A DNA stretch of 64,000 nucleotides from an uncultured Gammaproteobacteria bacterium (GCA_964551605.1 CAZKCV010000001.1:136898-200897), one strand, 5' to 3'. Counted from the first letter of the stretch, positions 4,638 to 64,000 are shown. Made by a program: numbers and translations. Notes: a model not told the origin generated them from the sequence alone.

Positions 4638-6368
4638 ATTAAATATTTCTGCTGCTGCCCGGATAATTTCATCATCTGCTGCCAGCTCTAAATTGGCAAT
4701 ATCTTCCCTTCTTTCCGGACGGCTACCCAATGCTGTGGAAACCCTGATGCCTCTGCCTAAGACGTCGGAAAAAACCCCTTCTAAAAGATCCCTATTCTTC
4801 GGCGCCTCCAGGATTCTTTGATGAAATGAATACGGAACCTCCAGTATGACGGTGTTCTCCGTGCACTTTCTAATACTAATGGACCTAAGTAATGCTTCTA
4901 ATGAATAATTAAAAGAACGCACTGTTTCCAATACAAAAGTCCACTTCTCTTTTAACTTAAAAATATCCAAAGAATCGGATGAGACAGTTGAAAACTCTGA
5001 TTGCTCCTTATTACTATGGGAATCTTCTCCTTTCAAAACTTTCTCAACCTCTTCCTGTCTTCTTGAGCTACTAGCATCGTCATTGCGAGGAGTCCCGACT
5101 TCAGTCGTGGACGACAAAGCAATCTTGGTGGGAATTTCTTCCGGACTAGATTGCTTCCCCCGGATCAAGTCCGGGGTCGCAATGACGGAAAAGGAAGTAC
5201 AAATTTCTACCACTGCCAGCTCCAGCGGTAATGACGGAATGGAAGCGAACTTTAATTTTTCCAGAGCTTTTTGCAAAATATCCAGTGCTTTAACTAAATC
5301 CCGACCGGATAAATTCTCTGACAATATTACCATCTGCTCATACTTATCTTCAGTAAGTTGAGGTTTAACCAACTGCCCTCCTACCTTATTTTTAATCAAC
5401 ATCAAGTTTCTTAAGGTATCCATTAAGGAAAGCGTTAATTCCCGAACATCTGCTCCATGCTCCAGCTGCCCTGATACATTCAGTAAGCTTTTTGCCGAAT
5501 CTTGCCTGAAAAGGTCTTTTACTAAATCCACAAGGTCATCAAAGGGGGTGGATTGAAGATTTTCCTGTAAATATTTAATTGTAACCTTAACTTTAGCAGC
5601 ACTTACCTGATCCAATAACTTGATGCCATCCCTAAAACTCCCTTCCGCTTTCTTTACTAAAAGCTTGAAGGCTTCCGGCTCAATATCAATTTGTTCTTCC
5701 TGAATTATTTTTTCAAAGGCGGCTGAGATCTCGCCCGGAGCAGCTAACTTAAAATCCAACCTTTGTACCCTGGATAGAATCGTCTGCGGGATTTTCCCCA
5801 GTTCGGTGGTTGCCAAAATAAACAACACATGTGCAGGAGGCTCCTCCAGAGTCTTAAGCAAGGCATTAAAGGCTTCCGTGGTTAACATATGTGCCTCATC
5901 AATGATGTATACTTTTTTCTTAAGAGAACTGGGTGAAAGCTTAATTTTTTCCCTTAGCGACCTAATGTCTTCAATTCCCCGGTTGGAAGCGGCGTCAATT
6001 TCAATAAGGTCCAAATTAGATCCGTCAGTAATGGAGATACACGTTGCGCATTTGTTACATGGGTAGTCATTAGTCTTCAGTATCGCTTCGCTCTCAGCTA
6101 TCAGACTTTTTTTGTCTTTGTCTGACGACTGACGACCGGTACCAATCGAAGATTGGTGGACTGACGACTTCTTCTCACAGTTAACCATCTTAGCTAAAAT
6201 CCGGGCGGTAGAAGTTTTACCTGTTCCCCTGGGGCCGACAAAAAGATAGGCGTGGGATAATTTATTGTTTTGAAAAGATGAAAGAAGAGTTTTTTTTACA
6301 GCTTCCTGACCCATTAGTTCTTGTAAAGTTTGAGGGCGGTACTTTAGATAATAAGCTATATTTCCCAT
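4620..6368 (-). CDS. dnaX: DNA polymerase III subunit gamma/tau
   Basis: Walker A GPRGTGKT, zinc module CNKCATC, tau linker. Contains two in-frame repeat-derived insertions. Confidence 0.9.
   Translation of the reverse strand: MGNIAYYLKYRPQTLQELMGQEAVKKTLLSSFQNNKLSHAYLFVGPRGTGKTSTARILAKMVNCEKKSSVHQSSIGTGRQSSDKDKKSLIAESEAILKTNDYPCNKCATCISITDGSNLDLIEIDAASNRGIEDIRSLREKIKLSPSSLKKKVYIIDEAHMLTTEAFNALLKTLEEPPAHVLFILATTELGKIPQTILSRVQRLDFKLAAPGEISAAFEKIIQEEQIDIEPEAFKLLVKKAEGSFRDGIKLLDQVSAAKVKVTIKYLQENLQSTPFDDLVDLVKDLFRQDSAKSLLNVSGQLEHGADVRELTLSLMDTLRNLMLIKNKVGGQLVKPQLTEDKYEQMVILSENLSGRDLVKALDILQKALEKLKFASIPSLPLELAVVEICTSFSVIATPDLIRGKQSSPEEIPTKIALSSTTEVGTPRNDDASSSRRQEEVEKVLKGEDSHSNKEQSEFSTVSSDSLDIFKLKEKWTFVLETVRSFNYSLEALLRSISIRKCTENTVILEVPYSFHQRILEAPKNRDLLEGVFSDVLGRGIRVSTALGSRPERREDIANLELAADDEIIRAAAEIFNSDTVN
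5079..5186. repeat. Palindromic element, family A (gtcattgcgagg...cctcgcaatgac), in frame inside dnaX
   Basis: About 108 bp. Its 3' arm is identical to the copy at 40278-40317. Confidence 0.8.
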
Positions 6369-6826
6369 TAATTATGATGAACTCCCAAAAGATGATTTAC
6401 GCCGTGCTCTACCAAATACTTAACTTCTTCATCTACAGAAATACCGTCAAGTGAAGCATCCTCAATTGCCTGCGGATAGGAGATAACAATGTCTCCGAGC
6501 CGGAGCCATCTATCCGGGGAGGCTACAAAGCCCACCCGGGGAATATGTTGCAGACTGGCAGGGTGGGAATCCTCCAAAGCAAAAGATAAAATATTAGTGG
6601 TCGCATCTATCCCCCGGTACTTCTGATTAAGTTCATGCATCTTTCTGTCACCTACAATGCTAATCCCCAGTTCAATGCGGCCGGAAATACGGAATTTTGT
6701 GAGAATTGCTGCAACAACAGCCTTAATTGCTGACTTATTAATATTATATCTGGGATCGGAATTAACAATTATATTTATCATATTAGTTATTTCTTCTTCA
6801 TGACCCATGCAACCTTTCTTTAACAA
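6368..6826 (-). CDS. ybeY: rRNA maturation endoribonuclease YbeY
   Basis: 152 aa with C-terminal H..H...H metal motif (HGVNHLLGVHH). Confidence 0.7.
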   Translation of the reverse strand: MLKKGCMGHEEEITNMINIIVNSDPRYNINKSAIKAVVAAILTKFRISGRIELGISIVGDRKMHELNQKYRGIDATTNILSFALEDSHPASLQHIPRVGFVASPDRWLRLGDIVISYPQAIEDASLDGISVDEEVKYLVEHGVNHLLGVHHN

Positions 6827-7244
6827 TACTACTTACTTGACCACCTTCCGCTCTTCCTTTAACTTTACCTATGACCACCCCCATCACCTTCCCCATCTCC
6901 GAAAACGATGTTGCCCCTAATTCATTTATAGTCTCCTCAACTATTTTAGTCAATTCCTCATTACTCATCTGAGCAGGTAAATAACCTTCAAGGATCTTCG
7001 CTTCTAACTCTTCCTTTGCTGCGGACTCTTCCCTGCCGCCCGCCCGAAAGCTATCTGCTGCTTCTTTTCTTTTTTTTACTTCCCTTGAAATCACGGAGAC
7101 TATATCTTCATCAGATAAACTTTCACCCTTGGAAATTTCTTTATTTTTAGCTTCGGACAAAAGCAGTCTGAGGGTGGAAACTTTAACCTCATCACGGGCC
7201 AACTGAGCATCTCTTAAATCAGTTTGCAGTTGATCTAATAACAT
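6798..7244 (-). CDS. yqeY: GatB/YqeY domain protein
   Basis: 148 aa, helical, YqeY-like. Adjacent to rpsU as in Firmicutes. Confidence 0.7.
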   Translation of the reverse strand: MLLDQLQTDLRDAQLARDEVKVSTLRLLLSEAKNKEISKGESLSDEDIVSVISREVKKRKEAADSFRAGGREESAAKEELEAKILEGYLPAQMSNEELTKIVEETINELGATSFSEMGKVMGVVIGKVKGRAEGGQVSSIVKERLHGS

Positions 7245-7248
7245 AGGG

Positions 7249-7446
7249 TTATCTGCTGTATCTCCTGGCCCGCATGATTTTTCTTCGTTTCTCAGCCAAA
7301 TACTCCTGACGGAGTTCGGATGGTTTCCGGTAAACAGACCGTTCCCTGATTTCCTGGACTATTCCTTCTGCCACGGCCTTTTTTTGAAATTTTCTGATCA
7401 CTGAATCCGTGCTGTCGCCCGGACCGGCTTTTACAACAATAGACAT
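7249..7446 (-). CDS. rpsU: 30S ribosomal protein S21
   Basis: 65 aa, basic, with the KRRKIMRARRY tail. Confidence 0.85.
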   Translation of the reverse strand: MSIVVKAGPGDSTDSVIRKFQKKAVAEGIVQEIRERSVYRKPSELRQEYLAEKRRKIMRARRYSR

Positions 7447-7474
7447 AAATGTAAAAACACCTCCTTTTATTTAA

Positions 7475-7807
7475 CTAGACAAACTTCTTCCATTGTCCAC
7501 CCAGAAGATGGAAATGTAAATGAGGTACATGTTGTGCTTTTCCCCCATTTACGACCACCCTGTATAAATCATTTTCCAAATTTTTCTCTGCCACCAATGT
7601 ATTTACAGCCTGGTAAACTTCTGCCAGTAAATCACCATAACTGCCTCCGAGATCTTTAATCCCTCCGATATGTTCTTTCGGTACTATCAGGGTATGAACT
7701 TCTGCCGAAGGATTAATATCATCAAAGGCTACCAGTTTCTCAGACTCATAAGCCAATTCTTTTGTAATCTCACCACTAATAATTTTGCAAAAGATGCAAT
7801 CATTCAT
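7475..7807 (-). CDS. HIT family hydrolase
   Basis: CIFCKII N-terminus and the histidine triad HLHFHLLGG. Confidence 0.85.
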   Translation of the reverse strand: MNDCIFCKIISGEITKELAYESEKLVAFDDINPSAEVHTLIVPKEHIGGIKDLGGSYGDLLAEVYQAVNTLVAEKNLENDLYRVVVNGGKAQHVPHLHFHLLGGQWKKFV

Positions 7808-7846
7808 AAATTTTTACTAGGAGAATTATACTCCGAAGATTATACT

Positions 7847-8926: not shown

Positions 8927-9040
8927 ATCCTTCGAACGAAGTGAGAAGTTTCCTTAAAAGTATTAATAATTCTTAAGGTAAGTTCTCTCTAACCGCTCGA
9001 ACAATAATCCAAGGTAATGTACCAGAAATAAGCTTCAAAA

Positions 9041-10627: not shown

Positions 10628-10720
10628 TAAAAGATTATATCATCCTTTGTTCCACTTTCCGGTTACATTGAGTCGCTATAGCGACTGATGTAACCATTCA
10701 TTCACTCTATATGGGATCAC

Positions 10721-11389: not shown

Positions 11390-11395
11390 AATCCC

Positions 11396-12499
11396 CTATG
11401 GTAAAAGCTTGCGGATGTCGGAGAAGGTAATAAGAAGGGCAAGAGCCAAAAGAATGATAAAACCTACCTGGTGGACCATTTTTTCAATATCACCTCTCAC
11501 TTTTCCACCGCTTACTGCTTCAATTACCAGGAACAATAACCTACCGCCATCCAAAGCCGGTACAGGCAAGACATTAAAAATGGCTAAAGTTAAAGAAATA
11601 ACCCCCACCAGCCACAAAAATGTTAAGGCAGCAGCCCAGCCGGCAGATAAAATCGTACCGGTAACTACAGCTAACCCTACCGGGCCGGCTACTGATTGTG
11701 AAGCTTTTCCAAAATCTCCGGTAATTAGGTCTTGAAATAAATTGCCTAGACCCGCAAAAGTTACTTTGGTTAAATCCCAAGAATAAGTAATTCCGGAAAA
11801 TATTTTTTCTGCAGGGGTTTTATATTCCCTGAATGGAATCGGGCTGAAAATAACTCCGATTAATGCATCTTCACCAGGACCCTTTTTAGGAGTTACTCTC
11901 ACTGTCCTTAATCTGTTCCCGTCAGCATCTGATAGTTGTAAACTCAAGGGCTGCTCGCCTTTTGACCTAATCAGCTGTCTGGCGTTGTCAATATTCTCGA
12001 CTTTTTGGTTATCAATGGAAATCAGTTTATCTCCAACCTGTATTCCAGCCTTCTCTGCCGGGAAGTTTTGTTCCAGTTTGGCAATATAAACGGCCGGCTC
12101 CAGCGTCGGATAAATAACCCTGAAATTTTGTGAAGCTATAACAGTATAAAAGAGCACCCAAGCCAACACTAAATTCATAACTACTCCGGCTACCACTACT
12201 ATAATTCTTTTACTCACCGGCTTAGTCCTAAAATCCCTGCTGTTCTCCGAACCTTTTCTCTTAATTGCCAAATCACCCTGTTCATCTTCTCCCAACAATC
12301 GGACAAAACCTCCGAAAGGCAACCAATTAAGAGAATAAATTGTTTCCCCGATTTTCTTTCCCCAGATTCGGGGCGGAATACCAAAGCCAAATTCTTCGAC
12401 TTTAATGCCGAAACGCTTGGCCATGATAAAATGCCCGAATTCGTGGATCAGGACTAAAACTAAAAGGGTAATGATGAAAATAATAATAGAAAATATCAT
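11396..12499 (-). CDS. rseP: RseP-like site-2 zinc metalloprotease (M50) with PDZ domain
   Basis: HEFGHF zinc motif in TM1, central PDZ, C-terminal LDGG motif. Confidence 0.85.
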   Translation of the reverse strand: MIFSIIIFIITLLVLVLIHEFGHFIMAKRFGIKVEEFGFGIPPRIWGKKIGETIYSLNWLPFGGFVRLLGEDEQGDLAIKRKGSENSRDFRTKPVSKRIIVVVAGVVMNLVLAWVLFYTVIASQNFRVIYPTLEPAVYIAKLEQNFPAEKAGIQVGDKLISIDNQKVENIDNARQLIRSKGEQPLSLQLSDADGNRLRTVRVTPKKGPGEDALIGVIFSPIPFREYKTPAEKIFSGITYSWDLTKVTFAGLGNLFQDLITGDFGKASQSVAGPVGLAVVTGTILSAGWAAALTFLWLVGVISLTLAIFNVLPVPALDGGRLLFLVIEAVSGGKVRGDIEKMVHQVGFIILLALALLITFSDIRKLLP

Positions 12500-12601
12500 A
12501 ATAGTCGTCAGCCATCAGCTGTCAGTCATAAGCTAAGCTTGCGAGCTTCGCTCTTCAGACAAATCAGAAAAGTCTGAAAGCTGAAGACTGAGGACTGAAG
12601 G

Positions 12602-16230: not shown

Positions 16231-16800
16231 TTATACTTGTCTCTCCTCCTTTTTCGGGCTGACCCTGCCGCCCTGGTGCTGACCCCGGTAGGAGACAGTT
16301 TTACCTTTTATTTTATGAAAAATAATATTACAAATCCTGGCTCCCAGCTGCAGTTTAACCGGAAAAGGGCTTAAGTTAGTTAAACCCATGGTCAGCTGTC
16401 CGCTGTAACCGGGATCGGTTTTTGAATTTAAAAGCAACAGTCCGGCCCGGAAAAGCGAAGTCCTGGTGTGCACTATCGGCATTAAATCCAAAGGCGTGTT
16501 GATTATTTCTACAGTCTGAGCTAAATAATATTCTCCGGGTTTTATTACAATCCAGGGTTGCTCTTCTTTTTCCTGCTGAAATTTAGCTACCTCTTTTGTC
16601 TTAACTCCCTTTCTACTGCCTAGTGCCTGTTGCCTGTCGCCTTCAATAAATGCTCCTCCTTTTATGATCTTATGAACAGCTCCTAAACGAAGGTCAATCC
16701 CCACCCCTTCCGGATTTTTCAAATCCCGGTGGCCCAAATTCTTAATTAGGGAATGTTTTTTTATTCTTTTGTGAATTTCATCTAACCCGAGTACGGACAT
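16231..16800 (-). CDS. dCTP deaminase/dUTPase-fold protein (paralog 2)
   Basis: DPGYSGQLT...GARICNIIF motif of the Dcd/dUTPase trimer fold. Confidence 0.6.
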   Translation of the reverse strand: MSVLGLDEIHKRIKKHSLIKNLGHRDLKNPEGVGIDLRLGAVHKIIKGGAFIEGDRQQALGSRKGVKTKEVAKFQQEKEEQPWIVIKPGEYYLAQTVEIINTPLDLMPIVHTRTSLFRAGLLLLNSKTDPGYSGQLTMGLTNLSPFPVKLQLGARICNIIFHKIKGKTVSYRGQHQGGRVSPKKEERQV

Positions 16801-18950: not shown

Positions 18951-20586
18951 TCAGCTGATCTTTATCTTAGAAGCGGCTTTAATAAACCCTAAAAACAGCG
19001 GATGCGGGGAAAGCGGCCGGGATTTTAGTTCCGGATGGAACTGGGTCCCTATGAAAAACGGATGGTCTTTCAGTTCAATTATCTCCACCAACTTTCCGTC
19101 CGGTGAAGTTCCGGAAATGGTTAAACCTTTTTTCATAAATTGTTCTAAAAAGTCATTATTAAACTCAAACCTGTGCCTGTGACGTTCCGAGATTTCCGGC
19201 TTGCCATATAAACTGCGAACCAGCGACCCTTCTCTTAGCTTACAATCCCAGGCTCCTAATCTCATGGTGGCTCCGTATTCCCGCTTTAACATTTTCTTCT
19301 CCTGATCCGGCATGATGTGAATAACCGGATATTTGGTCTCCGGATCTATTTCCGTGGTGTGGGCTCCCGGAAGATCCAAAACATCCCGGGCATATTCCAC
19401 TACTGCAAGTTGCATGCCGTAACAAAGGCCAAAATAAGGAATGTTATTTTCCCTGGCATATTTAATTGCCTCAATTTTTCCTTCAATATCTCTTGACCCA
19501 AAACCTCCTGGCACAATAATCCCGTTAAATTGACGCAGGATATCAACATTATCCAGAATTTTGCCCGAATCGAGCCAGGTAATTTCCGGTTTTAACCCCA
19601 GAGTCCAGGATGCATGCTTAACTGCTTCAATTACAGAAATATATGAATCGGCTAAGGTGAAAGCTCCGGTAGAGAAGTACTTACCCACTATAGCAATCTT
19701 TACAATCTGTTTACCCTGAGCTTGTCGAAGGGCAGAATCAATTTTCCTGACAAACTCTTTCCATTCTTTCATATCCTCATTTTTCCTCTTTAACCCCAAT
19801 TTATCCAGCAACCTTTGGGCTAAATTCTGTTCATCAAATCCCAGCGGTACTTTATAAATACTGTCCACATCGGGAGCGGAAATAATGTCCGCCGGCTCCA
19901 GGCCGGTAGACATAGACAATTTTCTGATTCTCTGCTGATCCAGCGGCTTCTCAGACCGGGCCAAAAGTATATCCGGTTGGATACCCATGGCATTTAAGTC
20001 CCTAACAGACATCTGGGCCGGTTTGCTTTTCATTTCACCAATCGAGGCCGGAATAGGCAAATAAGTAATATGGGCATGGAGGACATCTGCCGGGTTTTTT
20101 AATTTCATCAGCCGGTTGGCTTCTAAAAACAGGATGTTTTGGTATTCTCCGGTAGTACCCCCGATTTCTATGACTACCACATCAGCATTACCAGCCCGGC
20201 CGGCTTCTTTAATTCTTTTGATAATTTCTTCGGTGACATAAGTCACCACATCCACGCATTCCCCGTCATATTCTAAGTTTCTTTCACGCTGGATGACTGA
20301 AAGATAGATTGATCCTTGAGTAGCAATGCTGTTTTTATTTAAGGATTCATTTAAAAACCGCTCATAATGACCTAAATCCTGATCAGTTTCCGTGCCATCA
20401 TCTAACACAAACACTTCACCATGCTCAATCGGATTCATGGTCCCGGCATCGACATTCAAATAGGGATCCATCTTTATAGGAGTTACTTTATAACCTGCTG
20501 ATTTTAAAAGGAGCGCAATCGAAGAGGTAGCAATACCTTTTCCAATACCACTAATAACACCACCTGTGACAAATATATACTTCATA
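18951..20586 (-). CDS. pyrG: CTP synthase
   Basis: Start trimmed to MKYIFVTGGVISGIGKG. The 23 track codons upstream read through a palindromic repeat. The C-terminal half is a GATase (class I glutamine amidotransferase) domain, inferred from position. Confidence 0.85.
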
Positions 20587-20597
20587 GCTGATTCTAG

Positions 20598-20658
20598 AGA
20601 TTGCTTCACTACGTTCGCAATGACGTCATTGCGAGGAGCAAAGCGACGAAGCAATCTG
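20598..20658. repeat. Family A element, rearranged half-copies, intergenic between pyrG and topA
   Basis: agattgcttc...cgcaatgac followed by gtcattgcgagg...gacgaagcaatct. Confidence 0.7.
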
Positions 20659-20701
20659 TTTACGGGGGATTTTTGAGGCCCTCAATATAATACCAAGAAG
20701 G

Positions 20702-22786
20702 CTACCGGATTGCAAGTATTGTTTCAGGAGCAACAACTTCTTTCTGATCTCCCTCAGGAACGACTGGCTTGGGTTTGGTCCAGCTGGCAAATTTACAGAC
20801 GGGCCAGTTTTTGCAGCCGTAGAAAGTTTTGCCCCTTTTAGTTCTTCTCACTACAATATCCCCGCCATCCTGGGGACATTTGGCGTTGACCTTTTCTTCC
20901 AAAGATTCCGTATGTTTACATTCCGGAAAACCGGAACAAGCCAGGAACTTCCCGAATCTTCCTACCCTAACAATTAATTCCTTACCGCAGTCGGGGCACT
21001 TTTTACCGGCAAATTGAACTTCCATTTTCACTTTCTGGGCTTCTTTCTTAGTCTGTTCTACCTTTTTCTCAAACGGTTGGTAAAAAGCCGCAATTGTGGG
21101 ACGCCACTGCCTTTCACCCCTGGCTATTTCATCTAATTCATCTTCTAAACTGGCCGTAAAAGTGTAATCTATAATATCAGAAAAATTTGCCATCAAAAAA
21201 TCAATTACCGTCATACCTAAAATAGTAGGTATAAATTTTCTATTTTCTTTTTCTACATAAAACCGCTCCTGAATGGTAGAAATTATCGGGGCATATGTTG
21301 AAGGCCGGCCTATACCCAGCTCTTCCAGCTTTTTAATTAAAGAGGCTTCATTATATCTAGGCGGAGGTTCGGTAAAATGCTGAGACGGTAAAAGCTGCAC
21401 CAAAGCAAGCAACTGACCCTCAGATAAAGTAGGCAAAACTTGCTTTTTTTCCTCCCCTTCTTCCTCCGCCTCTTTTCCGAAGAGCTTAAGCCAACCATCA
21501 AATCGAATCACGCTGCCGGTTGCCCGAAGTAAATATCCGTCATTGCGAGGAGTCTGCGACGAAGCAATCTCTTGATTTTCCGAGGAAGATTGCTTCGCTT
21601 CGCTCGCAATGACGTCGATGGTTGTTTGGTCCATAACCGCCTCATTCATCTGGCACGCCACAAACCTTTTCCAAATCAGATCATATAACCGTACATGGTC
21701 TTTATTGAAATTTCCCTTCCCCCTTAACCCTTCACCCTTTTCCCTTATGTCTGTTACCCGAATCGCCTCATGCGCTTCCTGGGCATTTTTTGATTTAGAC
21801 TTAAAAACCCTGGCAACAGAAGGCAAATAAGTTTTACCGATAAAATTCTCTATGTATGTTCTGACAGCCCCGATTGCCTGAGTTGATAAATTAACGGAAT
21901 CTGTTCTCATATAAGTGATCAGTCCGTGTTCATACAAGGCCTGGGCAAGCATCATGGTCTTTTTGGCTGACATTCCCAATTTATTAGCCCCGGCTTGCTG
22001 CAGGGTTGAAGTTGTAAAAGGCGGGTATGGGTAGCGGCGGACTTCTTTTTGTGTAATTTTGGAGATGTTATACTGAGCCTTTTCCAGATTTTTGACATGC
22101 CCATCCGCTTCTTCCTTATTTTTGATTTCCAGCTTTTTGCCATCTTTTTCTATTAAATTGGCAATGAAACTGTTGCCTGTTGCCTGTTGCCTGTTGCCTT
22201 CCAGCTCTACCTCAATATTCCAATATTCCTCCGGCTTAAAGGCCTTTATCTCCCTTTCCCGTTCCACTATCAGCCTTAAAGCTACTGATTGAACCCGGCC
22301 GGCAGATAAGCCCTTTTTAACCTTTTCCCATAAAAGCGGTGAGAGTTTATAACCCACTAATCTATCTAAAACCCGTCTGGCCTGCTGGGCATCAACCAGT
22401 TTAAGATCAATAGGCCGGGGGTTTTCAAATGCCTCTTTAATGGCATCCTCAGTAATTTCATGAAAAACCACCCGCTTGGTATCTTTAGAATCATTTAATA
22501 CACCGGCTAAATGCCAGGCAATTGCCTCTCCTTCCCGATCAGGGTCTGTGGCTAGCCATAAAGACTCCGCTCTCTCAGCTACCTTCTTTAATTCATTAAC
22601 CCTTTTTTTCTTATCACGGGGAATAATGTATTTAGGATCAAAATTATGCTCAACATCTATTCCAAGCTCGGATTTCGGCAAATCCCGGATATGGCCCATT
22701 GAAGCCTCAATTTGATATTTATCACCCAGAAACTTTTGAAGTGTTTTCGCCTTAGTCGGTGATTCAACAATTACTAAATTCTGCAT
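20702..22786 (-). CDS. topA: DNA topoisomerase I with C-terminal zinc ribbons
   Basis: Toprim N-terminus and multiple C4 zinc ribbons. Carries in-frame repeat insertions. Confidence 0.9.
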   Translation of the reverse strand: MQNLVIVESPTKAKTLQKFLGDKYQIEASMGHIRDLPKSELGIDVEHNFDPKYIIPRDKKKRVNELKKVAERAESLWLATDPDREGEAIAWHLAGVLNDSKDTKRVVFHEITEDAIKEAFENPRPIDLKLVDAQQARRVLDRLVGYKLSPLLWEKVKKGLSAGRVQSVALRLIVEREREIKAFKPEEYWNIEVELEGNRQQATGNSFIANLIEKDGKKLEIKNKEEADGHVKNLEKAQYNISKITQKEVRRYPYPPFTTSTLQQAGANKLGMSAKKTMMLAQALYEHGLITYMRTDSVNLSTQAIGAVRTYIENFIGKTYLPSVARVFKSKSKNAQEAHEAIRVTDIREKGEGLRGKGNFNKDHVRLYDLIWKRFVACQMNEAVMDQTTIDVIASEAKQSSSENQEIASSQTPRNDGYLLRATGSVIRFDGWLKLFGKEAEEEGEEKKQVLPTLSEGQLLALVQLLPSQHFTEPPPRYNEASLIKKLEELGIGRPSTYAPIISTIQERFYVEKENRKFIPTILGMTVIDFLMANFSDIIDYTFTASLEDELDEIARGERQWRPTIAAFYQPFEKKVEQTKKEAQKVKMEVQFAGKKCPDCGKELIVRVGRFGKFLACSGFPECKHTESLEEKVNAKCPQDGGDIVVRRTKRGKTFYGCKNWPVCKFASWTKPKPVVPEGDQKEVVAPETILAIR
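21539..21613. repeat. Family A element in frame inside topA
   Basis: About 75 bp. Encodes VIASEAKQSSSENQEIASSQTPRND. Confidence 0.8.
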
Positions 22787-33264: not shown

Positions 33265-33283
33265 ATTTTAACATATAAAAATC

Positions 33284-33374
33284 GTCATTGCGAGGAACGA
33301 GTCATCGAGTGACGTGGCAATCTTGATGTGGGATTCATCCGACCTAGATTGCTTCGCTAATCGCTCGCAATGAC
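33284..33374. repeat. Family A element, intergenic between pyrD and mreB
   Basis: gtcattgcgaggaacg...agattgcttcgctaatcgctcgcaatgac. Confidence 0.8.
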
Positions 33375-33393
33375 GTAAGGCAATAACTTTGGT

Positions 33394-36947: not shown

Positions 36948-39098
36948 ATGGTTAACATTATTCTGGATAGAATCATTCCCTACTCTTTTTATGCCCTCTT
37001 TTTCTTAACTCCCCTGGTTTGGTCATCTGCCAATCATGAGCTTTTTGAATATAACAAAATGATTTTAACTTATGGCCTCACTGTCATTATTGTAGGAGCC
37101 TGGCTACTTAAAGCGATTAACGAAAAACGATTAACGATCAAACGAACTCCCCTAGATATTCCACTTTTATTATTTTTGGGAGCCAATATCCTGTCTACTA
37201 TATTTTCAATTGATCCCCACACTTCTATTTGGGGCTATTATTCCCGTTCAAACGGCGGGCTTTTATCCATCATCTCCTACCTATTATTATATTGGGCGTT
37301 TGTTTCCAATATGGACTTTGAGAGAGTTAAACTTGCCTTAAAATTTGGCCTGACTTCCGGTTTTATTATTTCCCTGTGGGCAATTTTTGAACACTTTGGA
37401 GTTTCTCCGTCCTGTGTAATTTTAAGGGGGGAGTTTAATGCTTCCTGCTGGATACAGGATGTCCAGGCCCGGGTTTTTGCCACTTTAGGCCAACCCAACT
37501 GGCTGGCAGCCTATTTGGCTATGTTAATTTTCCCCACTTTGTATTTTGCTTTAACTGCTTCCCATAAACTATACGCTATACGCTATACGCTTATCGCTAT
37601 TATCTTCTACCTGGCTTTTACCTTTACTTATTCCCGGGGACCCACACTGGGACTGATTGGAGGAATGGCGGTATTTATTATTGGCTACCTCTTCTGGCAT
37701 CCTGAGGGCAAAGCCCGAAGGATCTCTGCTCTACGAAGTACTTATTTTGTAACATTTATTTCAGACCCTCACATTCGTGAGAGATTCTTCACTACGTTCA
37801 GAATGACAAAGCTAGGAGGTATTTTAATCTCTTTCTTAATAATCAACCTCCTCTTTGGCTCAGCCTTAACTTCATTTAGATTAATTTCCAAATTTGCTGC
37901 CCCGGCCAGGCCCGGGATAGCTCTCCCAACCTCAAGCGGCACCCAACTGGAGAACGGCGGTACCGAATCCGGTCAAATCCGATTTATTGTCTGGAAAGGT
38001 GCCCTGGAAATATTTAAACATTACCCGCTTTTCGGCTCAGGAGTGGAAACCTTTGCCTATGCCTATTACCAGTACCGGCCGCCGGAACATAATCTAACCT
38101 CTGAATGGGATTTTCTTTACAACAAAGCGCATAATGAATATCTGAACTACCTGGCTACCACCGGAATTGTCGGCTTTGGGACTTATTTGCTGGTGATTGG
38201 AACATTCATTTATTGGTGTATTAAAAAAATTTCTAAATCCGAATTACTAATTTCTAATCAAATCCCAAATCCTAAACCCCAATTAGGTCAATTAGAAATT
38301 AGATCAATTAGAAATTTAGTTCTTGCACTCCTTGCTGCCTATATCTCCTACTTAATCTATAACTTCTTTCTTTTCTCCGTTGTCATTATTGCCGTCTTTT
38401 TCTATCTACTTCCGGCCCTGGCCTTTGTTGCTGCAAATTCCACTATACCCTATACCCTATACCCTATACCCTACCTCTACCGGAGACCACTATATACCCG
38501 GGTAGCTAAAGGTCTGGTGATTTTTTCCATCATCTATCTTCTATATTCTATATTCCAGCTTTGGTATGCCGATACTTTATTTGCCAAAGGTGAAAAAGCT
38601 ACTGATGCCGGTAGACTGAGTAAAGCCTATGAGTTTTTAACCAGAGCCTCGGATATTAACAGGGCTGAACCGCTTTATCAATCAGAACTGGGTTTTGTAC
38701 AGGCACAGGCAGCTGCGGCTTTAAAAGATACTGATGCTTCCGCATCCGCCGATTTTAAGGACGATGCGGTTTCCCTAACTGAAAATGTCTTAGAAAAAAG
38801 TCCCCAAAATATTTCATTCTACCGGACAGCAGTCAGGACCTATTTTGAGCTTTCCCTGACAGACAATGCCTTCATCGATAAAACCCTGCAAACACTGGAT
38901 CAAAGCATAAAACTGGCTCCCACTGATCCTAAACTTTATTATAATAAAGCCTTAATTCTTGAAAGCATCGGCAAAAAAGAAGAACAAATTAGAGCTTTAG
39001 AAAAAGCCCTACAGTTAAAACCAAATTATCTGGAAGCACTGGCTCTTTTAAAAGAGGCTACCGGATCAGCCCGCCTGCCGGACGGGCAGGCTAAATAA
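36948..39098 (+). CDS. O-antigen ligase (Wzy_C)-domain polytopic membrane protein with C-terminal TPR repeats (PglL/WaaL-like)
   Basis: SRGPTLG and LFGSGVETF...HNEYLNYLATTGIVGF motifs, at least 10 TM helices, TPR-like tail. Confidence 0.7.
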   Translation: MVNIILDRIIPYSFYALFFLTPLVWSSANHELFEYNKMILTYGLTVIIVGAWLLKAINEKRLTIKRTPLDIPLLLFLGANILSTIFSIDPHTSIWGYYSRSNGGLLSIISYLLLYWAFVSNMDFERVKLALKFGLTSGFIISLWAIFEHFGVSPSCVILRGEFNASCWIQDVQARVFATLGQPNWLAAYLAMLIFPTLYFALTASHKLYAIRYTLIAIIFYLAFTFTYSRGPTLGLIGGMAVFIIGYLFWHPEGKARRISALRSTYFVTFISDPHIRERFFTTFRMTKLGGILISFLIINLLFGSALTSFRLISKFAAPARPGIALPTSSGTQLENGGTESGQIRFIVWKGALEIFKHYPLFGSGVETFAYAYYQYRPPEHNLTSEWDFLYNKAHNEYLNYLATTGIVGFGTYLLVIGTFIYWCIKKISKSELLISNQIPNPKPQLGQLEIRSIRNLVLALLAAYISYLIYNFFLFSVVIIAVFFYLLPALAFVAANSTIPYTLYPIPYLYRRPLYTRVAKGLVIFSIIYLLYSIFQLWYADTLFAKGEKATDAGRLSKAYEFLTRASDINRAEPLYQSELGFVQAQAAAALKDTDASASADFKDDAVSLTENVLEKSPQNISFYRTAVRTYFELSLTDNAFIDKTLQTLDQSIKLAPTDPKLYYNKALILESIGKKEEQIRALEKALQLKPNYLEALALLKEATGSARLPDGQAK

Positions 39099-40222: not shown

Positions 40223-40223
40223 C

Positions 40224-40317
40224 GTCATTGCGAGGAACGAAGTGACGAAGCAATCTTGGTAGTGATTAAACATTAACTAGATTGCTTCCCCCGGATCAAG
40301 TCCGGGGTCGCAATGAC
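40224..40317. repeat. Family A element, intergenic between def and fmt
   Basis: gtcattgcgaggaacgaagtgacgaagcaatct...agattgcttcccccggatcaagtccggggtcgcaatgac. Confidence 0.8.
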
Positions 40318-40328
40318 GAAATAAAAAA

Positions 40329-47946: not shown

Positions 47947-47980
47947 TGTCATTCTGAGCGTAACGAAGAATCTCAAGATT
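47947..47980. repeat. Family B element (partial) upstream of the HTH/endonuclease-like gene
   Basis: gtcattctgagcgtaacgaagaatctcaagatt. Confidence 0.5.
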
Positions 47981-48052: not shown

Positions 48053-48715
48053 ATGGCTTACAAAATGGAACTTAAGGGGAGGGCTATAAACTTAAGAGAA
48101 CAGGGTTATTCCATCAAAGAAATTGCAAAACTTCTCAGTATTGCAAAAAGCACTTCATCTGCATGGCTCAGTAATATTATGCTGTCCCCTAAGGCACAGG
48201 AAAGATTAAAGTCTCGTAGAATTTTAGGACAATACAAATCTATAGAAATCGCACGTAAAAAAAGGGTTGCGCAACAGCTAATATTAACAAATGAGGCTAA
48301 CCAACTTTTATCGAAAGTCTCAATCAATCCAGCAATATGTAAATTATGTTGCGCCCTACTCTTTTGGTGTGAAGGTGCTAAAACCAATACTCTAGTGAAA
48401 TTCACAAATTCAGACCCATCTCTAATAAAATTATTTCTTGATTTACTAAGAACAGGGTTTAAAATTGATGAATCAAAACTAAGAATCCTTATGCATTTAC
48501 ATGAATATCATGTGGAAGAGAAGCAAAAAATATTTTGGAGAGAGATCACTAAAATTCCCCTAGAACAATTCCACAGATCATATCTAAAACCTCACACAGG
48601 GAAACGGAAACATCCGAATTATCCTGGCTGCATTTCTGTAACATATTACAATGCTAAAGTTGCAAAAGAGTTAGCTACAATCTACAATACTTTTGTACAA
48701 AGGGGCGTCCGTTAA
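48053..48715 (+). CDS. HTH-domain protein, possible homing-endonuclease-like. Its 3' end overlaps tRNA-Trp.
   Basis: N-terminal HTH LREQGYSIKEIAKLL. C-terminal region is weakly LAGLIDADG-like (ALLFWCEGAK...LIKLFLDLL). The last 5 codons lie inside the tRNA acceptor stem. Confidence 0.4.
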   Translation: MAYKMELKGRAINLREQGYSIKEIAKLLSIAKSTSSAWLSNIMLSPKAQERLKSRRILGQYKSIEIARKKRVAQQLILTNEANQLLSKVSINPAICKLCCALLFWCEGAKTNTLVKFTNSDPSLIKLFLDLLRTGFKIDESKLRILMHLHEYHVEEKQKIFWREITKIPLEQFHRSYLKPHTGKRKHPNYPGCISVTYYNAKVAKELATIYNTFVQRGVR

Positions 48716-48772
48716 CTGGTAAACGGTTTCTCTCCAAAAGAAATCCTGCAGGTTCGAGTCCTGCCGCCCCTG
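48701..48772 (+). tRNA. tRNA-Trp (anticodon CCA)
   Basis: Acceptor aggggcg/cgcccct, anticodon stem tttct/agaaa with loop ctCCAaa, T-arm gcagg-ttcgagt-cctgc. Confidence 0.7.
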
Positions 48773-48785
48773 CATTATTATGAAT

Positions 48786-52909: not shown

Positions 52910-52916
52910 AATTATT

Positions 52917-52984
52917 GTCATTCTGAGCGAAGCGAAGAATATAACTTAATGATTATATCCTTCGGCTAATCGCCTCAGGATGAC
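52917..52984. repeat. Family B palindromic element (gtcattctgagcgaagcgaagaat ... cgcctcaggatgac) at the GH1/EamA junction
   Basis: Imperfect terminal inverted repeat gtcattctgagcg / cgcctcaggatgac. A related copy lies at 47947-47980. Confidence 0.6.
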
Positions 52985-53957
52985 AGGGATTATGAATCAT
53001 TTACCATTTACCCTTACTGCCTACCTTTTGAATGCCCTGGCGGTTTTAGCCAATAAATTTTTGCTTAATAAAGCCATCCCCGACCCTTTAGTGTATGTTT
53101 TTTATATCAGCGTTGTCTCTTTATTTGCAGTTTTAGTCCTACCCTTTACCAATACCCCGGCCCTTTCCACTTTTTATCTGGCATCAGTTTCTACCGTTCT
53201 TTGGACGCTGGGTGCCTATTTCATGTTTAAAGCCCTAAAATTAGGCAATGTTTCGCGGGTGATTCCGATTATCGGTACCCTGATTCCCCTGTTTTTGCTT
53301 ATCTTTGCGGTGGGAACCGGAACTATTACTACTACTCAAACCTGGGCAGTCTGGTTTTTGGTAGCCGGTATTGTATTTTTAACTATTACAGATTGGCAGG
53401 CCCGCCTGCCAGCGCCTGAGCGCCCGCCTGCCACGACTGTGGCATGTCGGGCAGGCAGCGATGGCGGGCAGGGGAAATTCAGTATCAGGGAAATTGTATT
53501 TGAACTGCTTTCAGCCGGCCTTTTTGCCGTCTCCTATGTTTTCTTAAGACAGGCTTATTTAAGCTTGGACTTTTTCTCAGTCCTGATCTGGTCCAGATTG
53601 ATCCTGCTGCCTCTTTGTTTAATTATGCTGATTATCCCGGCTTTAAGAAGAAAAATTATCACCTCAAATGGCCTAAAAATTAACTTTTTTTCTAAACCCG
53701 GCTTGGTGTTCCTGGGCGGACAATTAAGCGGCGCCTCCTCAGAGTTTCTACTGCTCTTTTCCATTTCCTTGGCTAACCCAGCCTTAGTCAATTCCCTACA
53801 AGGCACCCAATACGTCTTTTTACTGATCTTTGCTTTAGTCTTAGGCCGGGAATACCCAAAAGTTTTTGAAGAAAAATATACCTTCAAAGAGTTAATAGTA
53901 AAAGTTATCGGGATTGGACTTCTGAGCTTTGGGATCTACCTGCTGGCCGCTACTTGA
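52980..53957 (+). CDS. EamA/DMT-family transporter with a GC-rich in-frame palindromic insertion
   Basis: 10 TM helices in two EamA-like halves. The central loop ARLPAPERPPATTVACRAGSDGGQG is encoded by a GC-rich palindrome. Confidence 0.6.
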   Translation: MTGIMNHLPFTLTAYLLNALAVLANKFLLNKAIPDPLVYVFYISVVSLFAVLVLPFTNTPALSTFYLASVSTVLWTLGAYFMFKALKLGNVSRVIPIIGTLIPLFLLIFAVGTGTITTTQTWAVWFLVAGIVFLTITDWQARLPAPERPPATTVACRAGSDGGQGKFSIREIVFELLSAGLFAVSYVFLRQAYLSLDFFSVLIWSRLILLPLCLIMLIIPALRRKIITSNGLKINFFSKPGLVFLGGQLSGASSEFLLLFSISLANPALVNSLQGTQYVFLLIFALVLGREYPKVFEEKYTFKELIVKVIGIGLLSFGIYLLAAT

Positions 53958-54233: not shown

Positions 54234-54234
54234 C

Positions 54235-58159: not shown

Positions 58160-58165
58160 GGTCTT

Positions 58166-61243: not shown

Positions 61244-61293
61244 ATCTTAACCATAGCAAAACCATTTACTAAAAACAAACTTTCAGGGAAATC

Positions 61294-61689
61294 TTATCTT
61301 TCCAGCACAACCCAACCTCTGAGGTCTGTTTTTTTGATTTTAATAGGAGAAGTAATAAAGCGGGATGAATCTCCGATGAAAATCAAGGTCGCATATCTAC
61401 AATAAGACCTATTAGACCAATAAGTCTTATCAACAGCCAAATCTCGCCCGTATTCTTTCTTAATCCGGGCCAGGTCTTCTCCCGAAAGGCCGTCATAAAA
61501 GATCACTTTTTTTACCCGAAACTGGCCGATTATTTCTTTGCCGGAAGGCTTTATATAAACCAAATCTCCCCGGGAAATTAAGCCGAAAGGCGGATTTTTG
61601 ACCCGGGAAAAACGGGACTCAATGGTTTTTTTACCGGATAATATCCACTCCCCCGCTTCCCCCTTAAAAATAGCCAGATGTCTTTTCAT
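61294..61689 (-). CDS. ASCH (PUA-like) domain protein
   Basis: ILSGKKTIESRF...GDLVYIK matches the ASCH beta-barrel N-terminal pattern. Confidence 0.5.
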   Translation of the reverse strand: MKRHLAIFKGEAGEWILSGKKTIESRFSRVKNPPFGLISRGDLVYIKPSGKEIIGQFRVKKVIFYDGLSGEDLARIKKEYGRDLAVDKTYWSNRSYCRYATLIFIGDSSRFITSPIKIKKTDLRGWVVLER

Positions 61690-61860
61690 TAAAGTAACTT
61701 TCTTCTGTCATCCCCCGATTAAATCGGGGGATCCATACAAATAATTGGTATAGATTCCTGCTTTCGCAGGAATGACAACGGAATTTTTCATTATTGCAAT
61801 TATACTACTACCTTTGTTATACTTGATACGTTCATGTAAACTGAACGTATCTTGACAAAT

Positions 61861-61887
61861 GGGTCTAAATATAGACCCTTTTTTTAT
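61861..61887 (+). terminator. Hairpin gggtcta-aata-tagaccc followed by T7 run, immediately 5' of the secE start
   Basis: Perfect 7-bp stem plus TTTTTTT. Could be a terminator or attenuator-like element ahead of secE-nusG-rplKA. Confidence 0.35.
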
Positions 61888-62080
61888 GCCTAATATATTT
61901 GGATTTCTAAATGAAGTTAAAGAAGAATTAGCTAAGGTAACCTGGCCCAGCCGGGAAGAAACTGTCCGTTATACGGTTCTGGTTATCCTGGTCGCGGCTG
62001 TGGTTGGTTTGTTCTTAGGTGGCCTGGATTATATCCTAACCAGCATTACCACCTTTATAATAGGAAACTATGGACGATAA
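61886..62080 (+). CDS. secE: Preprotein translocase subunit SecE
   Basis: 64 aa. TWPSREETVRYTVLVILVAAVVGLFLGGLDYIL single TM. Start trimmed to MPNIFG. Confidence 0.8.
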   Translation: MPNIFGFLNEVKEELAKVTWPSREETVRYTVLVILVAAVVGLFLGGLDYILTSITTFIIGNYGR

Positions 62081-62987
62081 AAATCAAAAAACAGAAGAAA
62101 AAGTTTCAGAAGTAACAGACGCTTCTGAGGAACCTGTTGTAGAAGAAACCACTGAATCAAATCAGCCGGAAGAGGCTTCCTCTCCTGTCATTGCGAGTGA
62201 AACCGAAGGTGAAACGAAGCAATCTTCCACGGATGAAGAAGATCGCCACGTCGTCCCGCAAAGCGGGACTCCTCGCGATGACGAAGAAATAAACAAAGAC
62301 GAAGCCGTAGTAGAAGAATCTACAAAAGAACCTGAAGCGCAAGTAAACGAACCAGGTGAGACTCCAGCTGCCGAAGAACCAACTACATCCGATGAGCCTA
62401 CTCCAGCCACCCACGAGTCGACTGAACCACAAGAATCCGCCTCCCCTACCAAAAATGATAATCCTAATGCCAAATGGTATGTTGTTCATACCTATTCCGG
62501 CCATGAAAACAAGGTGGCCCATACCTTAAAACAGCGGGTAGAATCCGAGCATCTGGAAGAGAAAATCCTGGAAATCCTGGTTCCCATGCAGGATAAAATT
62601 GAAATCAAAGGCGGCAAAAAGGTTAATGTCAAGGAAAAAATCTTCCCCGGCTATATTTTGGTCAAGATGGTCCTGGATGATATCTCCTGGCTGGTTGTCA
62701 GGACTACCCAGGGAGTAACTGCTTTTGTCGGTATAGGCAATAAACCCACTCCAATTTCTGAGGCTGAAGTACAAACTATTGTTAAATTTACCCAAACAGA
62801 AGCTCCAATGTACAAACAAGTGTTTGCCGTATCTGATGCGGTTAAAATCGTAGACGGCCCGTTTGCTGATTTTATTGGTAAAATCGACAGTGTTGATGAA
62901 GAAAAAGGTAAAGTCCGGGTCCTGGTTTCCATCTTTGGTAGGGAAACCCCGGTTGAGTTGGACTTTTTGCAAGTTCAGAAATTATAA
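62070..62987 (+). CDS. nusG: Transcription antiterminator NusG with ~125-aa acidic N-terminal extension
   Basis: NGN domain KWYVVHTYSGHENKV and KOW domain KIVDGPFADFIGKI. The extension contains a palindromic repeat in frame. Confidence 0.85.
   Translation: MDDKNQKTEEKVSEVTDASEEPVVEETTESNQPEEASSPVIASETEGETKQSSTDEEDRHVVPQSGTPRDDEEINKDEAVVEESTKEPEAQVNEPGETPAAEEPTTSDEPTPATHESTEPQESASPTKNDNPNAKWYVVHTYSGHENKVAHTLKQRVESEHLEEKILEILVPMQDKIEIKGGKKVNVKEKIFPGYILVKMVLDDISWLVVRTTQGVTAFVGIGNKPTPISEAEVQTIVKFTQTEAPMYKQVFAVSDAVKIVDGPFADFIGKIDSVDEEKGKVRVLVSIFGRETPVELDFLQVQKL
62187..62282. repeat. Family A element in frame in the nusG N-terminal extension
   Basis: About 96 bp. Encodes VIASETEGETKQSS...SGTPRDDEE. 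Confidence 0.75.
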
Positions 62988-63026
62988 GTAACCTAAGTCA
63001 CTTGAGTTACTTAAGAAACTTAAACT

Positions 63027-63452
63027 ATGGCTAAAAAGGTTAAAACATTGATTAAATTAAATATTCCGGCCGGTGAGGCAACTCCGGCTCCCCCGGTTGG
63101 CCCGGCCTTAGGCCAACACGGCTTACCGATCATGGAATTTGTCAAAGCTTACAATGACAAAACTCAGGATAAAAAAGGCAATATTTTACCGGTAGTGATT
63201 ACGGTTTATGAAGACCGGACTTTTTCATTTTTTACTAAAGAGCCGCCGGTGGCGGAAATGATTAAAAAAACTCTAAGCTTAGAAAAAGGTTCCGGCACAG
63301 CCATGAAACAGCCGGTTGGCACTTTATCTTTAGCTCAAGTAAAACAGATAGCAGAAGCCAAACTACCGGATTTGAACACAAAAGATGTTCAGGCTGCCAT
63401 GAAAATTGTCGAAGGCACTGCCAAAAGTATGGGAGTGAAAATTAGTGGGTAG
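63027..63452 (+). CDS. rplK: 50S ribosomal protein L11
   Basis: [23 protein letters not shown] motif. Confidence 0.9.
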
Positions 63453-63508
63453 GTTTTAGGTGATAGGTTATAGATTAAAACTATAAGCTACAACCAAAGG
63501 GAGCACAA

Positions 63509-64000
63509 ATGGGACGACCAAGATTAAAAATTATTGATGATGCACAGGAAGAAACTGAAGAGAAGCTTTCCAAAAAGAAAGCTAAAAAGCCGGAAATAAA
63601 GACTGAAGCATCAATTCCAGACGTCATTGCGAGCGACGCCGAAGGCGGAACGAAGCAATCCAACTCGGAAGAAACTCCCACCCAGATTGCTTCGTCGCAG
63701 ACTCCTCGCAATGACAAAGAGAAGAAAGCCCGAAAACCCGGCAAAGCCAAGCCCCGATCCAAAAAGTATCAAGAAGTTGTCAAAGACCTGGACAAAACCA
63801 AGGCTTATCCCCTTTCCGAAGCAGTTGAGCTGGTTAAGAAACTTTCCTACTCTAAATTTGATGGTAGTCTGGAAGCCCATGTCAACACTGCACAAACCGG
63901 AATCCGTGGTTTAGTCTCCTTGCCCTATGCTGCCGGTAGGAAACTGCGCATCTTGGCTTTTGGCAAAGGAGCGGAAACTTCAGGGGCTGACACGGTTGGT
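63509..64000 (+). CDS. rplA: 50S ribosomal protein L1 (partial at 3' end, with ~80-aa Lys-rich N-terminal extension)
   Basis: Core SKKYQEVVKDLDKTKAYPLSEAVELVKK...LPYAAGRKLRILAFGKG. Runs off the window. Not in the ORF track because no stop codon is reached. Confidence 0.8.
   Translation, partial: MGRPRLKIIDDAQEETEEKLSKKKAKKPEIKTEASIPDVIASDAEGGTKQSNSEETPTQIASSQTPRNDKEKKARKPGKAKPRSKKYQEVVKDLDKTKAYPLSEAVELVKKLSYSKFDGSLEAHVNTAQTGIRGLVSLPYAAGRKLRILAFGKGAETSGADTVG
63623..63715. repeat. Family A element in frame in the rplA N-terminal extension
   Basis: Encodes VIASDAEGGTKQSNSEETPTQIASSQTPRND. Confidence 0.75.

Follow-up and report, generated by a model that had tools for sequence, protein, structure and literature searches.

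The 64,000-nt stretch CAZKCV010000001.1:136898-200897 of assembly GCA_964551605.1 (the window) contains a dispersed family of palindromic repeats, several of which lie in frame inside conserved genes. We consider it likely, with a probability of about 0.8, that these repeats are dimers of CGTC-tagged repetitive extragenic palindromic (REP) units that were copied within the lineage, and that the in-frame coding copies are tolerated. The inventory comprised 21 units at 11 places. Five of these places are intragenic in a window with a coding fraction of about 93-95%; the elements are depleted in coding sequence, yet far from excluded there. The best named homologs of the TopA and DnaX proteins came from metagenome-assembled genomes (MAGs) of Candidatus Daviesbacteria, Microgenomates or Patescibacteria, and judged by these homologs the host belongs to Candidatus Daviesbacteria within the Candidate Phyla Radiation (CPR, Patescibacteria).

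Repeat units and dimers in the window

The terminal 12-mer GTCATTGCGAGG was matched 11 times with at most one mismatch, against 0.23 matches expected (0 of 100 shuffles gave as many), so the motif is repeated beyond chance within the window. The internal arm GACGAAGCAATCT was matched 12 times with at most two mismatches, against 1.3 expected. The search pattern for units was a tag, then 5 bp of AT-initiated stem, then the complement of that stem; the loose form of this pattern gives about 10 chance matches per 64 kb, and units were counted only if they belonged to a recognisable sequence family. All seven copies proposed by the first-pass annotation (5079-5186, 20598-20657, 21539-21613, 33284-33374, 40224-40317, 62187-62282 and 63623-63715) were located, although the second of these is a tail-to-tail pair of half-units and not the standard element. 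Its count of at least seven stood but missed four further places, which are the Wzy copy, the single unit and the last two intergenic dimers of Table 1. The terminal inverted repeat that it described is present, but the palindrome extends 1 nt further out on each side, running from CGTC to GACG.

A unit combines the tag CGTC or TGTC with a 5-bp stem that starts with AT, a purine-rich GA/GAA internal loop and a variable inner mini-hairpin. In the main family (family A, 14 units making up the seven copies above, 11 with the CGTC tag and three with TGTC) the pattern is ATTGC-GA…GAA-GCAAT, with an inner hairpin such as GC-GAA-GC or CCCCGGA-CTTGA-TCCGGGG. Units of the sister families (ATCCT and ATTCT stems) carry the tag TGTC or TGGC. 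Variants of the stem are compensated on both sides (ATTGC/GCAAT, ATCGC/GCGAT, ATTCT/AGAAT, ATCCT/AGGAT). Nine of the 10 dimers are oriented head to head around spacers of 12-56 nt, giving a palindrome of 70-115 nt in total.

Table 1. Repeat copies and their host genes, in positions of the window.
Feature	Position	Strand	Description or basis
dnaX copy, head-to-head dimer	5078..5187	-	arms 48 + 40 nt, spacer 22 nt; CGTC-tagged units
topA/pyrG spacer copy, tail-to-tail unit pair	20598..20657		28 + 34 nt, overlapping in the shared CG of both CGTC tags
topA copy, head-to-head heterodimer	21538..21614	-	arms 33 + 28 nt, spacer 16 nt
mreB/pyrD copy, head-to-head dimer, intergenic	33283..33375		19 nt past mreB stop, upstream of pyrD
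Wzy copy, sister-family dimer	37695..37808	+	TGGC-ATCCT... and TGTC-ATTCT... units, spacer 56 nt
def/fmt copy, head-to-head dimer, intergenic	40223..40318		from 1 nt past def stop to 10 nt before fmt ATG
Single unit TGTCATTCTGAGCGTAACGAAGAATCT, intergenic	47947..47973	+	unit search
Head-to-head dimer, ATTCT + ATCCT units, intergenic	52916..52985		overlaps first candidate ATG (52980) of downstream reading frame
Head-to-head dimer upstream of secE-nusG, intergenic	61706..61777		classical-looking CGTC-type units, perfect 8-10 bp stems
nusG copy, head-to-head dimer	62186..62283	+	right arm with compensated stem variant ATCGC...GCGAT
rplA copy, head-to-head dimer	63622..63716	+	in frame, basic N-terminal leader
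dnaX (DNA polymerase III tau/gamma), host gene	4620..6368	-	Pfam
topA (topoisomerase I), host gene	20702..22786	-	Pfam
Wzy_C/TPR membrane protein gene, host gene	36948..39098	+	domain scan
nusG, host gene	62070..62987	+	Pfam; NGN domain from residue 135
rplA (L1) with N-terminal leader, host gene	63509..64000	+	runs past window end; position and tblastn

The copies that had been described as intergenic (pyrG/topA, pyrD/mreB and def/fmt) do fall outside genes. All three of these family-A copies lie between unidirectional genes, 1-45 nt past the upstream stop codon, and have no T-tract. The topA/pyrG copy, 45 nt past the topA stop, ends 12 nt ahead of the pyrG ATG at 20585; in the long open reading frame (ORF) the CTP_synth_N match does not begin until residue 25, which puts the copy ahead of the true pyrG start. 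Measured from GTC to GAC, the mreB/pyrD copy is 91 nt long (1 mod 3) and the def/fmt copy 94 nt (1 mod 3), the latter with three stops in the VIA frame. The two units of the dimer upstream of secE-nusG read TGTC-ATCCCCCGAT-TAA-ATCGGGGGAT-CC and TGTC-ATTCCTGC-GAAA-GCAGGAAT-CT. At the 52916-52985 dimer, the first candidate ATG of ORF 52980-53957 comes from the GGATGACA end of the repeat, and a second ATG lies 12 nt downstream; an ATG supplied in this way is a likely source of start-codon miscalls beside such repeats.

Folded as single-stranded DNA, the dimers formed one long hairpin, as had been suggested, and were far more stable than shuffled sequences (z -4.1 to -8.0 for nine of the 10 dimers). 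The dnaX copy folded at -35.2 kcal/mol (z -7.5), and z was -5.7 for topA, -5.1 for mreB/pyrD, -8.0 for def/fmt, -4.1 for nusG, -5.7 for rplA and -5.9 for 52916-52985; the Wzy copy was weak (-1.5). In the 61706-61777 dimer each unit folds alone (z -5.8). No Rfam family matched the repeats over the whole window at gathering thresholds, and at E <= 10 the region 20500-21700 gave no repeat family and only two meaningless long non-coding RNA matches; the element is no curated RNA family. A hammerhead-like or K-turn-like GA-rich internal loop was considered and dropped, as the motifs did not fit and Rfam gave no support.

Coding copies and empty sites in relatives

Pfam confirmed DnaX, TopA, CTP synthase, NusG, DHODH, MreB, Def and Fmt. 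No Pfam match was obtained for the rplA fragment, which was called from its place after rplK and from a tblastn match of its core in about 60 syntenic loci. As first proposed, four copies are in frame: those in dnaX, topA, nusG and rplA are 108, 75, 96 and 93 nt long, respectively, and each starts at codon phase 0. Their inserts read VIATPDLIRGKQSS...GTPRND, VIASEAKQSSSENQEIASSQTPRND, VIASETEGETKQSS...GTPRDD and VIASDAEGGTKQSNSEETPTQIASSQTPRND, related peptides that all follow the pattern VIA...(P)R(N/D)D. The DnaX insert (VIATPDLIRGKQSSPEEIPTKIALSSTTEVGTPRND, residues 395-430) stands at the start of the tau linker, the TopA insert covers residues 392-416, and those of NusG (residues 40-71) and L1 (residues 39-69) lie in an acidic and a basic N-terminal leader, respectively. 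Peptides across the junctions between insert and host are TTIDVIASEAK and TPRNDGYLLR in TopA and IPDVIASDAEGGTK in L1. A fifth in-frame copy, beyond the four recognised earlier, was found in the gene for a Wzy-type membrane protein; it lies inside the Wzy_C domain and keeps the ORF open in another frame (WHPEGKARRIS...FFTTFRMT).

Length and phase were compared over head-to-head dimers from the window and 81 Microgenomates loci (L121-L201). All 14 coding dimer calls (about 12 independent, as two pairs overlap) had a GTC...GAC length of 0 mod 3, stood in phase 0 and read VI…ND, while the 11 non-coding dimers were spread 2/5/4 over lengths of 0, 1 and 2 mod 3. Lengths of 58 dimers from other phyla, almost all intergenic, fell in all three classes, and two clear coding dimers in unrelated low-GC MAGs were again 0 mod 3 and in phase 0. 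Both orientations of the palindrome give the same VIA...ND frame, which encodes a hydrophilic peptide rich in Ser, Glu, Lys and Gln. For lengths divisible by three, the third frame is closed by a terminal TGA. The second frame (SLRG...LAMT) is open, yet it was absent among the 14 coding dimer calls, which we read as selection on the peptide. Other frames are used in some orthologs (VILG...ARMT) and in the Wzy copy. On these sequence constraints, the coding copies are most likely translated as tolerated extra loops.

Relatives were sampled as one topA-pyrG locus (L121) and 80 metagenome loci around rplK (L122-L201). The closest TopA orthologs (~80% identity) have only 2-4 residues (TAGN, TADS) between DQTT(I/V)DV and YLLRATGS. 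In L121 topA the empty site is visible in the DNA (GAT GTG ACG GCC GGT AAT TAT), and no unit was found anywhere in this 22-kb syntenic locus, topA-pyrG spacer included. Aligned with E. coli TopA (4RUL), the window protein has 21 extra residues exactly at the turn between TVGAGD and FRLKARG. This is a beta-hairpin turn of domain D2, and an AlphaFold2 model (27-sequence alignment; mean pLDDT 47) placed the insert, at low confidence, as coil between two strands. For L1, the nearest relative (L122) has a 45-residue leader without the segment. Segments of the form VIA...PRND occur in L1 of L125, L126, L130 and L164 and in NusG of L130, L136 and L153, and most loci have none. The DnaX linker is hypervariable right after ELAVVEIC; some orthologs (P0123, P0140, P0168) have VIAS...PRND there, others VIPS...QDD or VILS...QND, and many lack any such segment. 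In the Wzy-like protein about 35 residues are absent from the nearest homologs, and two other homologs hold different REP peptides in the same loop. A search of Pfam and NCBIfam, libraries that we take to include Rickettsia palindromic element domain models, gave no match to the five insert peptides at E <= 10.

By these alignments the segments in all five host genes are lineage-specific insertions and not ancestral sequence, which agrees with what had been proposed for DnaX, TopA, NusG and L1: the nearest TopA and L1 orthologs and many NusG and DnaX orthologs lack them, and the sites of the closest orthologs are empty. Since the same permissive sites hold different repeat families across lineages, they look like permissive hot spots where elements have inserted many times over and selection has sorted the outcome, although a preference for these sites is possible as well.

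Further repeats were seen in the same genes. A second in-frame insert of DnaX, about 32 residues long (6066-6170, minus strand; residues 66-101), occupies the zinc-module loop (CEKK SSVHQSSIGTGRQSSDKDKKSLIAESEAILKTND YPCNKC), where most orthologs have 5-6 residues. A related peptide (SSVVSRQSSDK.SLKADSEAILKT.S) occupies the same site in DnaX of P0130, P0150 and P0162 and the TopA hot spot in P0007 and P0049. The DNA of this insert has short repeats of GTCGTCA type, small palindromes and an AATGAC end, and it appears to be a different repeat family. The heptamer TGCCTGT is repeated in tandem, in 3-4 copies and in frame, at 22174-22201 (topA, residues ~196-205) and at 16617-16644 (ORF 16231-16800); the two arrays are 89% identical and encode GNRQQATGNS and GDRQQALGS in two unrelated genes. 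GNSGQ(A/V)TGDS-like strings occur in TopA orthologs at the heptamer site and at the C-termini. In this clade the L1 leader (63509-63760 in the window; L122-L201) is basic, about 40-125 residues long, starts MG(K/R)..(V/I)K..., often includes ...GLKGGERV... and precedes the conserved core, and the NusG leader is acidic and 9-150 residues long; both vary greatly in length. A peptide GDGEEG..R.VAAVSE..EDARR.TEPAGP in the L1 and NusG leaders of L123 and the L1 leader of L127, both related Microgenomates contigs, suggests that yet another family of repeats, not related to the CGTC units, is present. Between topA and pyrG, L121 has a 23S_rRNA_IVP/bAvd-like gene (12006-12359), where the window has the REP pair only. 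At about 39.7 kb in the window, gene orientation turns from almost all minus (1-39.7 kb) to mostly plus and GC skew moves from about -0.15 to -0.2 to near -0.03; this switch may be a replication-related boundary.

Relation to known repeats and competing explanations

The CGTC-tagged REP type was defined by Di Nocera, De Gregorio and Rocco (2013, BMC Genomics 14:522; PMC3733652), who distinguished families CGTC-1 to CGTC-4 in five phyla (Proteobacteria, Chlorobi, Bacteroidetes, Spirochaetes and Thermotogae). The window repeats match this type: each of their units opens with CGTC or TGTC and then AT, and a spacer separates the two units of a head-to-head pair. The two share the tag, the AT-initiated stem and a short 3' tail, dimers that are mostly head to head, often heterodimers (with spacers of 20-100 bp there and 12-56 nt here) and able to form one large hairpin, dispersal in many copies, in-frame copies and the lack of a known associated transposase. 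Published intragenic CGTC dimers encode 20-30 residues, often in replication or repair genes, and no transposase has been tied to these REPs (PMC3733652). The insert in Rhodopseudomonas palustris DNA polymerase I, VMAGLDPAIHP...NPRVKPAGD, follows the same VI...ND logic (PMC3733652 supplement), and the 40-nt units of the window (loop CTTGA, ATTGC...GCAAT ends) recall the R. palustris CGTC-3 peptide VIAGLDPAIH (GTC ATT GCC GGG CTT GAC CCG GCA ATC). There are also differences. The four published families have continuous stems of 8-9 bp with A/T-initiated ends, loops of 4-5 nt and the tag variants TGTC and CCTC (PMC3733652), whereas in family A the stem is 5 bp long and is followed by a GA/GAA loop and an inner hairpin that varies; only the 61706-61777 dimer has 8-10 bp stems. 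The tail is CT in the window family and CCA in published CGTC REPs, and the list of intragenic REP peptides in the PMC3733652 supplement does not include those of the window (VIASEAKQS...PRND).

Other repeat systems resemble the window copies in part. The dimer at 61706-61777 shares the classical form TGTC-ATTCCTGC-GAAA-GCAGGAAT with Neisseria dRS3/NIMEs. The Neisseria units differ in that they occur mostly in large clusters (PMC3733652), and they are not known for insertions in frame within essential genes.

Rickettsia palindromic elements (RPEs), of which RPE-1 to RPE-8 or more were reportedly described by Ogata et al. in 2000 and 2002, are likewise palindromes of a reduced genome that lie within housekeeping genes and keep the reading frame, are tolerated in surface-exposed parts and are absent from orthologs. 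Their peptides in R. conorii (VIPAKAGI, SFLRKQES...DSRFRGND, AIPRLDRGI) differ from those of the window, as does the host phylum, and RPE-1, at ~150 bp, is both longer and unrelated. The kinship with RPEs suggested by the first-pass annotation was borne out through the CGTC tag, which marks the REP type of R. conorii RPE-6 (CGTC-1) and RPE-4 (CGTC-4), as well as Neisseria dRS3 (CGTC-1) (PMC3733652). RPEs, the only precedent that it knew, are not the only one, as in-frame CGTC and GTAG REPs were already listed for replication and repair genes of several species (PMC3733652).

Under the explanation that we favour, two inverted units placed head to head around a spacer would form a long hairpin as single-stranded DNA or RNA, and whole dimers, spacer included, would be copied to new places in the Daviesbacteria lineage, no transposase being linked to this REP type. 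Intergenic copies would settle just past the 3' end of the upstream gene, the usual position of REPs. Within genes, selection would keep copies whose length is a multiple of three and whose stop-free hydrophilic frame is GTC ATT GCG ... AAT GAC (V I A ... N D). The kept copies would sit at permissive places, namely the TopA beta-hairpin turn, the DnaX tau linker, the NusG and L1 leaders and an inter-helix loop of the Wzy protein. The inserts, 25-36 residues rich in Ser, Glu, Lys, Gln and Thr, are most likely translated, probably disordered, and would be tolerated as presumably neutral additions.

Copies in the window are closely related to one another. The right arm of the rplA copy equals the left arm of the topA copy (100% over 32 nt), the right arms of the dnaX and def/fmt copies are 98% identical over 46 nt, and the spacers of the dnaX, rplA and mreB/pyrD copies are related, as seen in the peptides SSPEEIPTKIA and SNSEETPTQIA. 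Such near-identical arms would reflect recent copying or exchange. The flanks of the seven family-A copies showed no target-site duplication (TCC and GAT, GAC and GGA, CCT and GAA, GAC and AAA, etc.). No match to six RAYT/TIRYT proteins was found by tblastn in the window and 201 loci (1.25 Mb). Clustering of the genes beside units in 240 loci gave no recurrent enzyme and only phage structural proteins, in at most nine loci, and a domain scan of ten unassigned window ORFs found no transposase domain except a weak helix-turn-helix (HTH). The latter belongs to ORF 48053-48715 (220 residues), where a weak N-terminal HTH (HTH_Tnp_IS630, HTH_7; E ~1e-5) was seen and no catalytic transposase domain was detected. 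This ORF lies about 80 nt downstream of the single unit, and its 3' end overlaps tRNA-Trp (48701-48773). A classical miniature inverted-repeat transposable element (MITE) was rejected: terminal inverted repeats are present, but there is no target-site duplication and no parent insertion sequence was seen.

Four other explanations were weighed. The repeats could be host-functional structures under selection, such as mRNA 3'-end stabilisers, attenuators or protein-binding DNA sites, with the coding copies incidental. The strong predicted hairpins and the location of the three intergenic family-A copies shortly past a stop codon between unidirectional genes, a typical REP position, fit such a role. 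The same spacers are polymorphic among close relatives, however, L121 lacks all copies, there is no T-tract, and the spread of one sequence into five unrelated coding regions is left unexplained. We regard a host function as an unlikely account of the repeats, albeit one that can coexist with REP insertion without replacing it.

Somewhat further from the data is a relation to the REPIN/RAYT systems, reportedly introduced by Bertels and Rainey in 2011. The doublets would then be non-autonomous and be moved by a RAYT, an HUH tyrosine transposase of IS200/IS605 type, from a single gene copy at another place in the genome. Like the window repeats, REPINs are inverted doublets of REP hairpins around a conserved spacer, dispersed in many copies without target-site duplication. 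Mini-hairpins of GCGAAGC type, like the inner hairpins here, are very stable in single-stranded DNA. REPINs, though, are built from GTAG-tagged REPs and need a RAYT gene flanked by REPs, whereas the window tag is CGTC or TGTC; the 2013 survey reported no RAYT flanked by CGTC repeats (PMC3733652), and the 1.25 Mb searched held no RAYT/TIRYT homolog, nor the 240 loci a recurrent neighbour gene. A RAYT-driven origin is thus rather improbable.

Excision of the coding copies before or after translation, like an intron or intein, is highly improbable: palindromes might form long RNA hairpins cut by RNases, and CPR bacteria have known insertions in rRNA genes, but an excised element would need neither a length of 0 mod 3 nor a single phase nor freedom from stops, and yet 14 of 14 coding dimer calls comply, with no intein or intron hallmarks and no Rfam family. 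That the segments are ancestral, lineage-typical low-complexity linkers whose DNA is alike through convergent composition can be practically dismissed, for although the sites are variable and of low complexity in all relatives (tau linker, NusG and L1 leaders), the same 11-12 nt termini and arms recur in intergenic copies, the sites of the closest orthologs are empty in protein and DNA, and a 32-nt arm is identical between topA and rplA.

Several points weigh against insertion of CGTC-tagged REP dimers as we propose it. The stem of family A has five Watson-Crick pairs with purine mismatches, and the family was not assigned to any of the four CGTC families. The single unit at 47947-47973 gave no stable fold on its own. 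Translation of the inserts is argued from constraints on the sequence, and mobility from comparative evidence, no mobilising enzyme, target-site duplication or excision product having been found. The 80 rplK loci are centred on nusG-rplKA, itself a hot spot; the poor TopA model was used for secondary structure near the insert only, with the 4RUL alignment relied on instead; and the counts refer to the 64-kb window, a part of the genome. The term selfish DNA, applied to the repeats at first, is an inference from their presence/absence polymorphism and near-identical copies.

Distribution and significance

An exact scan for GTCATTGCGAG-N4-30-GAAGCAATC in one genome per species returned at least 120 loci and, among the matches listed, at least 15 phyla by record titles. 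The groups listed were Alpha-, Gamma- and Deltaproteobacteria, Myxococcota, Chloroflexota, Bacteroidota, Ignavibacteriota, Cyanobacteria, Melainabacteria, Patescibacteria, Zixibacteria, Planctomycetota, Omnitrophota, Latescibacterota, Gemmatimonadota, Armatimonadota, Firmicutes and Campylobacterota. The commonest units among these matches were 26 and 32 nt long and often formed 32 + 26 heterodimers, as in the topA copy. At least 120 viral contigs of IMG/VR carry this 20-nt core pattern too. Neighbouring genes in these contigs (L202-L321) include phage portal, capsid and tail genes; L216 and L237 hold some 4-6 copies, all on one strand, and L247 has a tandem array with a 33-nt period.

We raise tentatively, and doubt more than we believe, that the ATTGC-GA...GAA-GCAAT unit is a near-invariant hairpin module common to at least 15 bacterial phyla and many viral contigs that has no dedicated transposase and is spread by a universal host process acting on single-stranded hairpins or by phage carriage between phyla. 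If so, the unit would insert so often in CPR that essential proteins are repeatedly remodelled at the same loops. In that case the search for the mobiliser of CGTC REPs, a question standing since 2013, would have its best prospects in a Daviesbacteria genome, which at ~1 Mb holds very few candidate enzymes.

No paper on palindromic elements or MITEs in CPR/Patescibacteria came up in literature searches, this group goes unmentioned in a MITE review of 2024 and a REP survey of 2025, and a full-text search for the repeat sequence string returned unrelated primers only. CGTC REPs, in-frame insertions of RPE type and the preference for replication genes were already known (since 2000 and 2013), so the current picture of the phenomenon is unchanged. 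New are the CPR host phylum, a distinct and widespread unit variant, the clustering of inserts at hot spots of core CPR proteins, and the clear-cut signature in length and phase. For annotation, variable length and lineage-specific inserts in CPR TopA, DnaX, NusG, L1 and Wzy proteins can be due to REP dimers and not to functional domains, and ORF starts beside REPs can be miscalled. The finding extends CGTC REPs to a phylum with genomes of about 1 Mb and sharpens the question of how such repeats move without a transposase.

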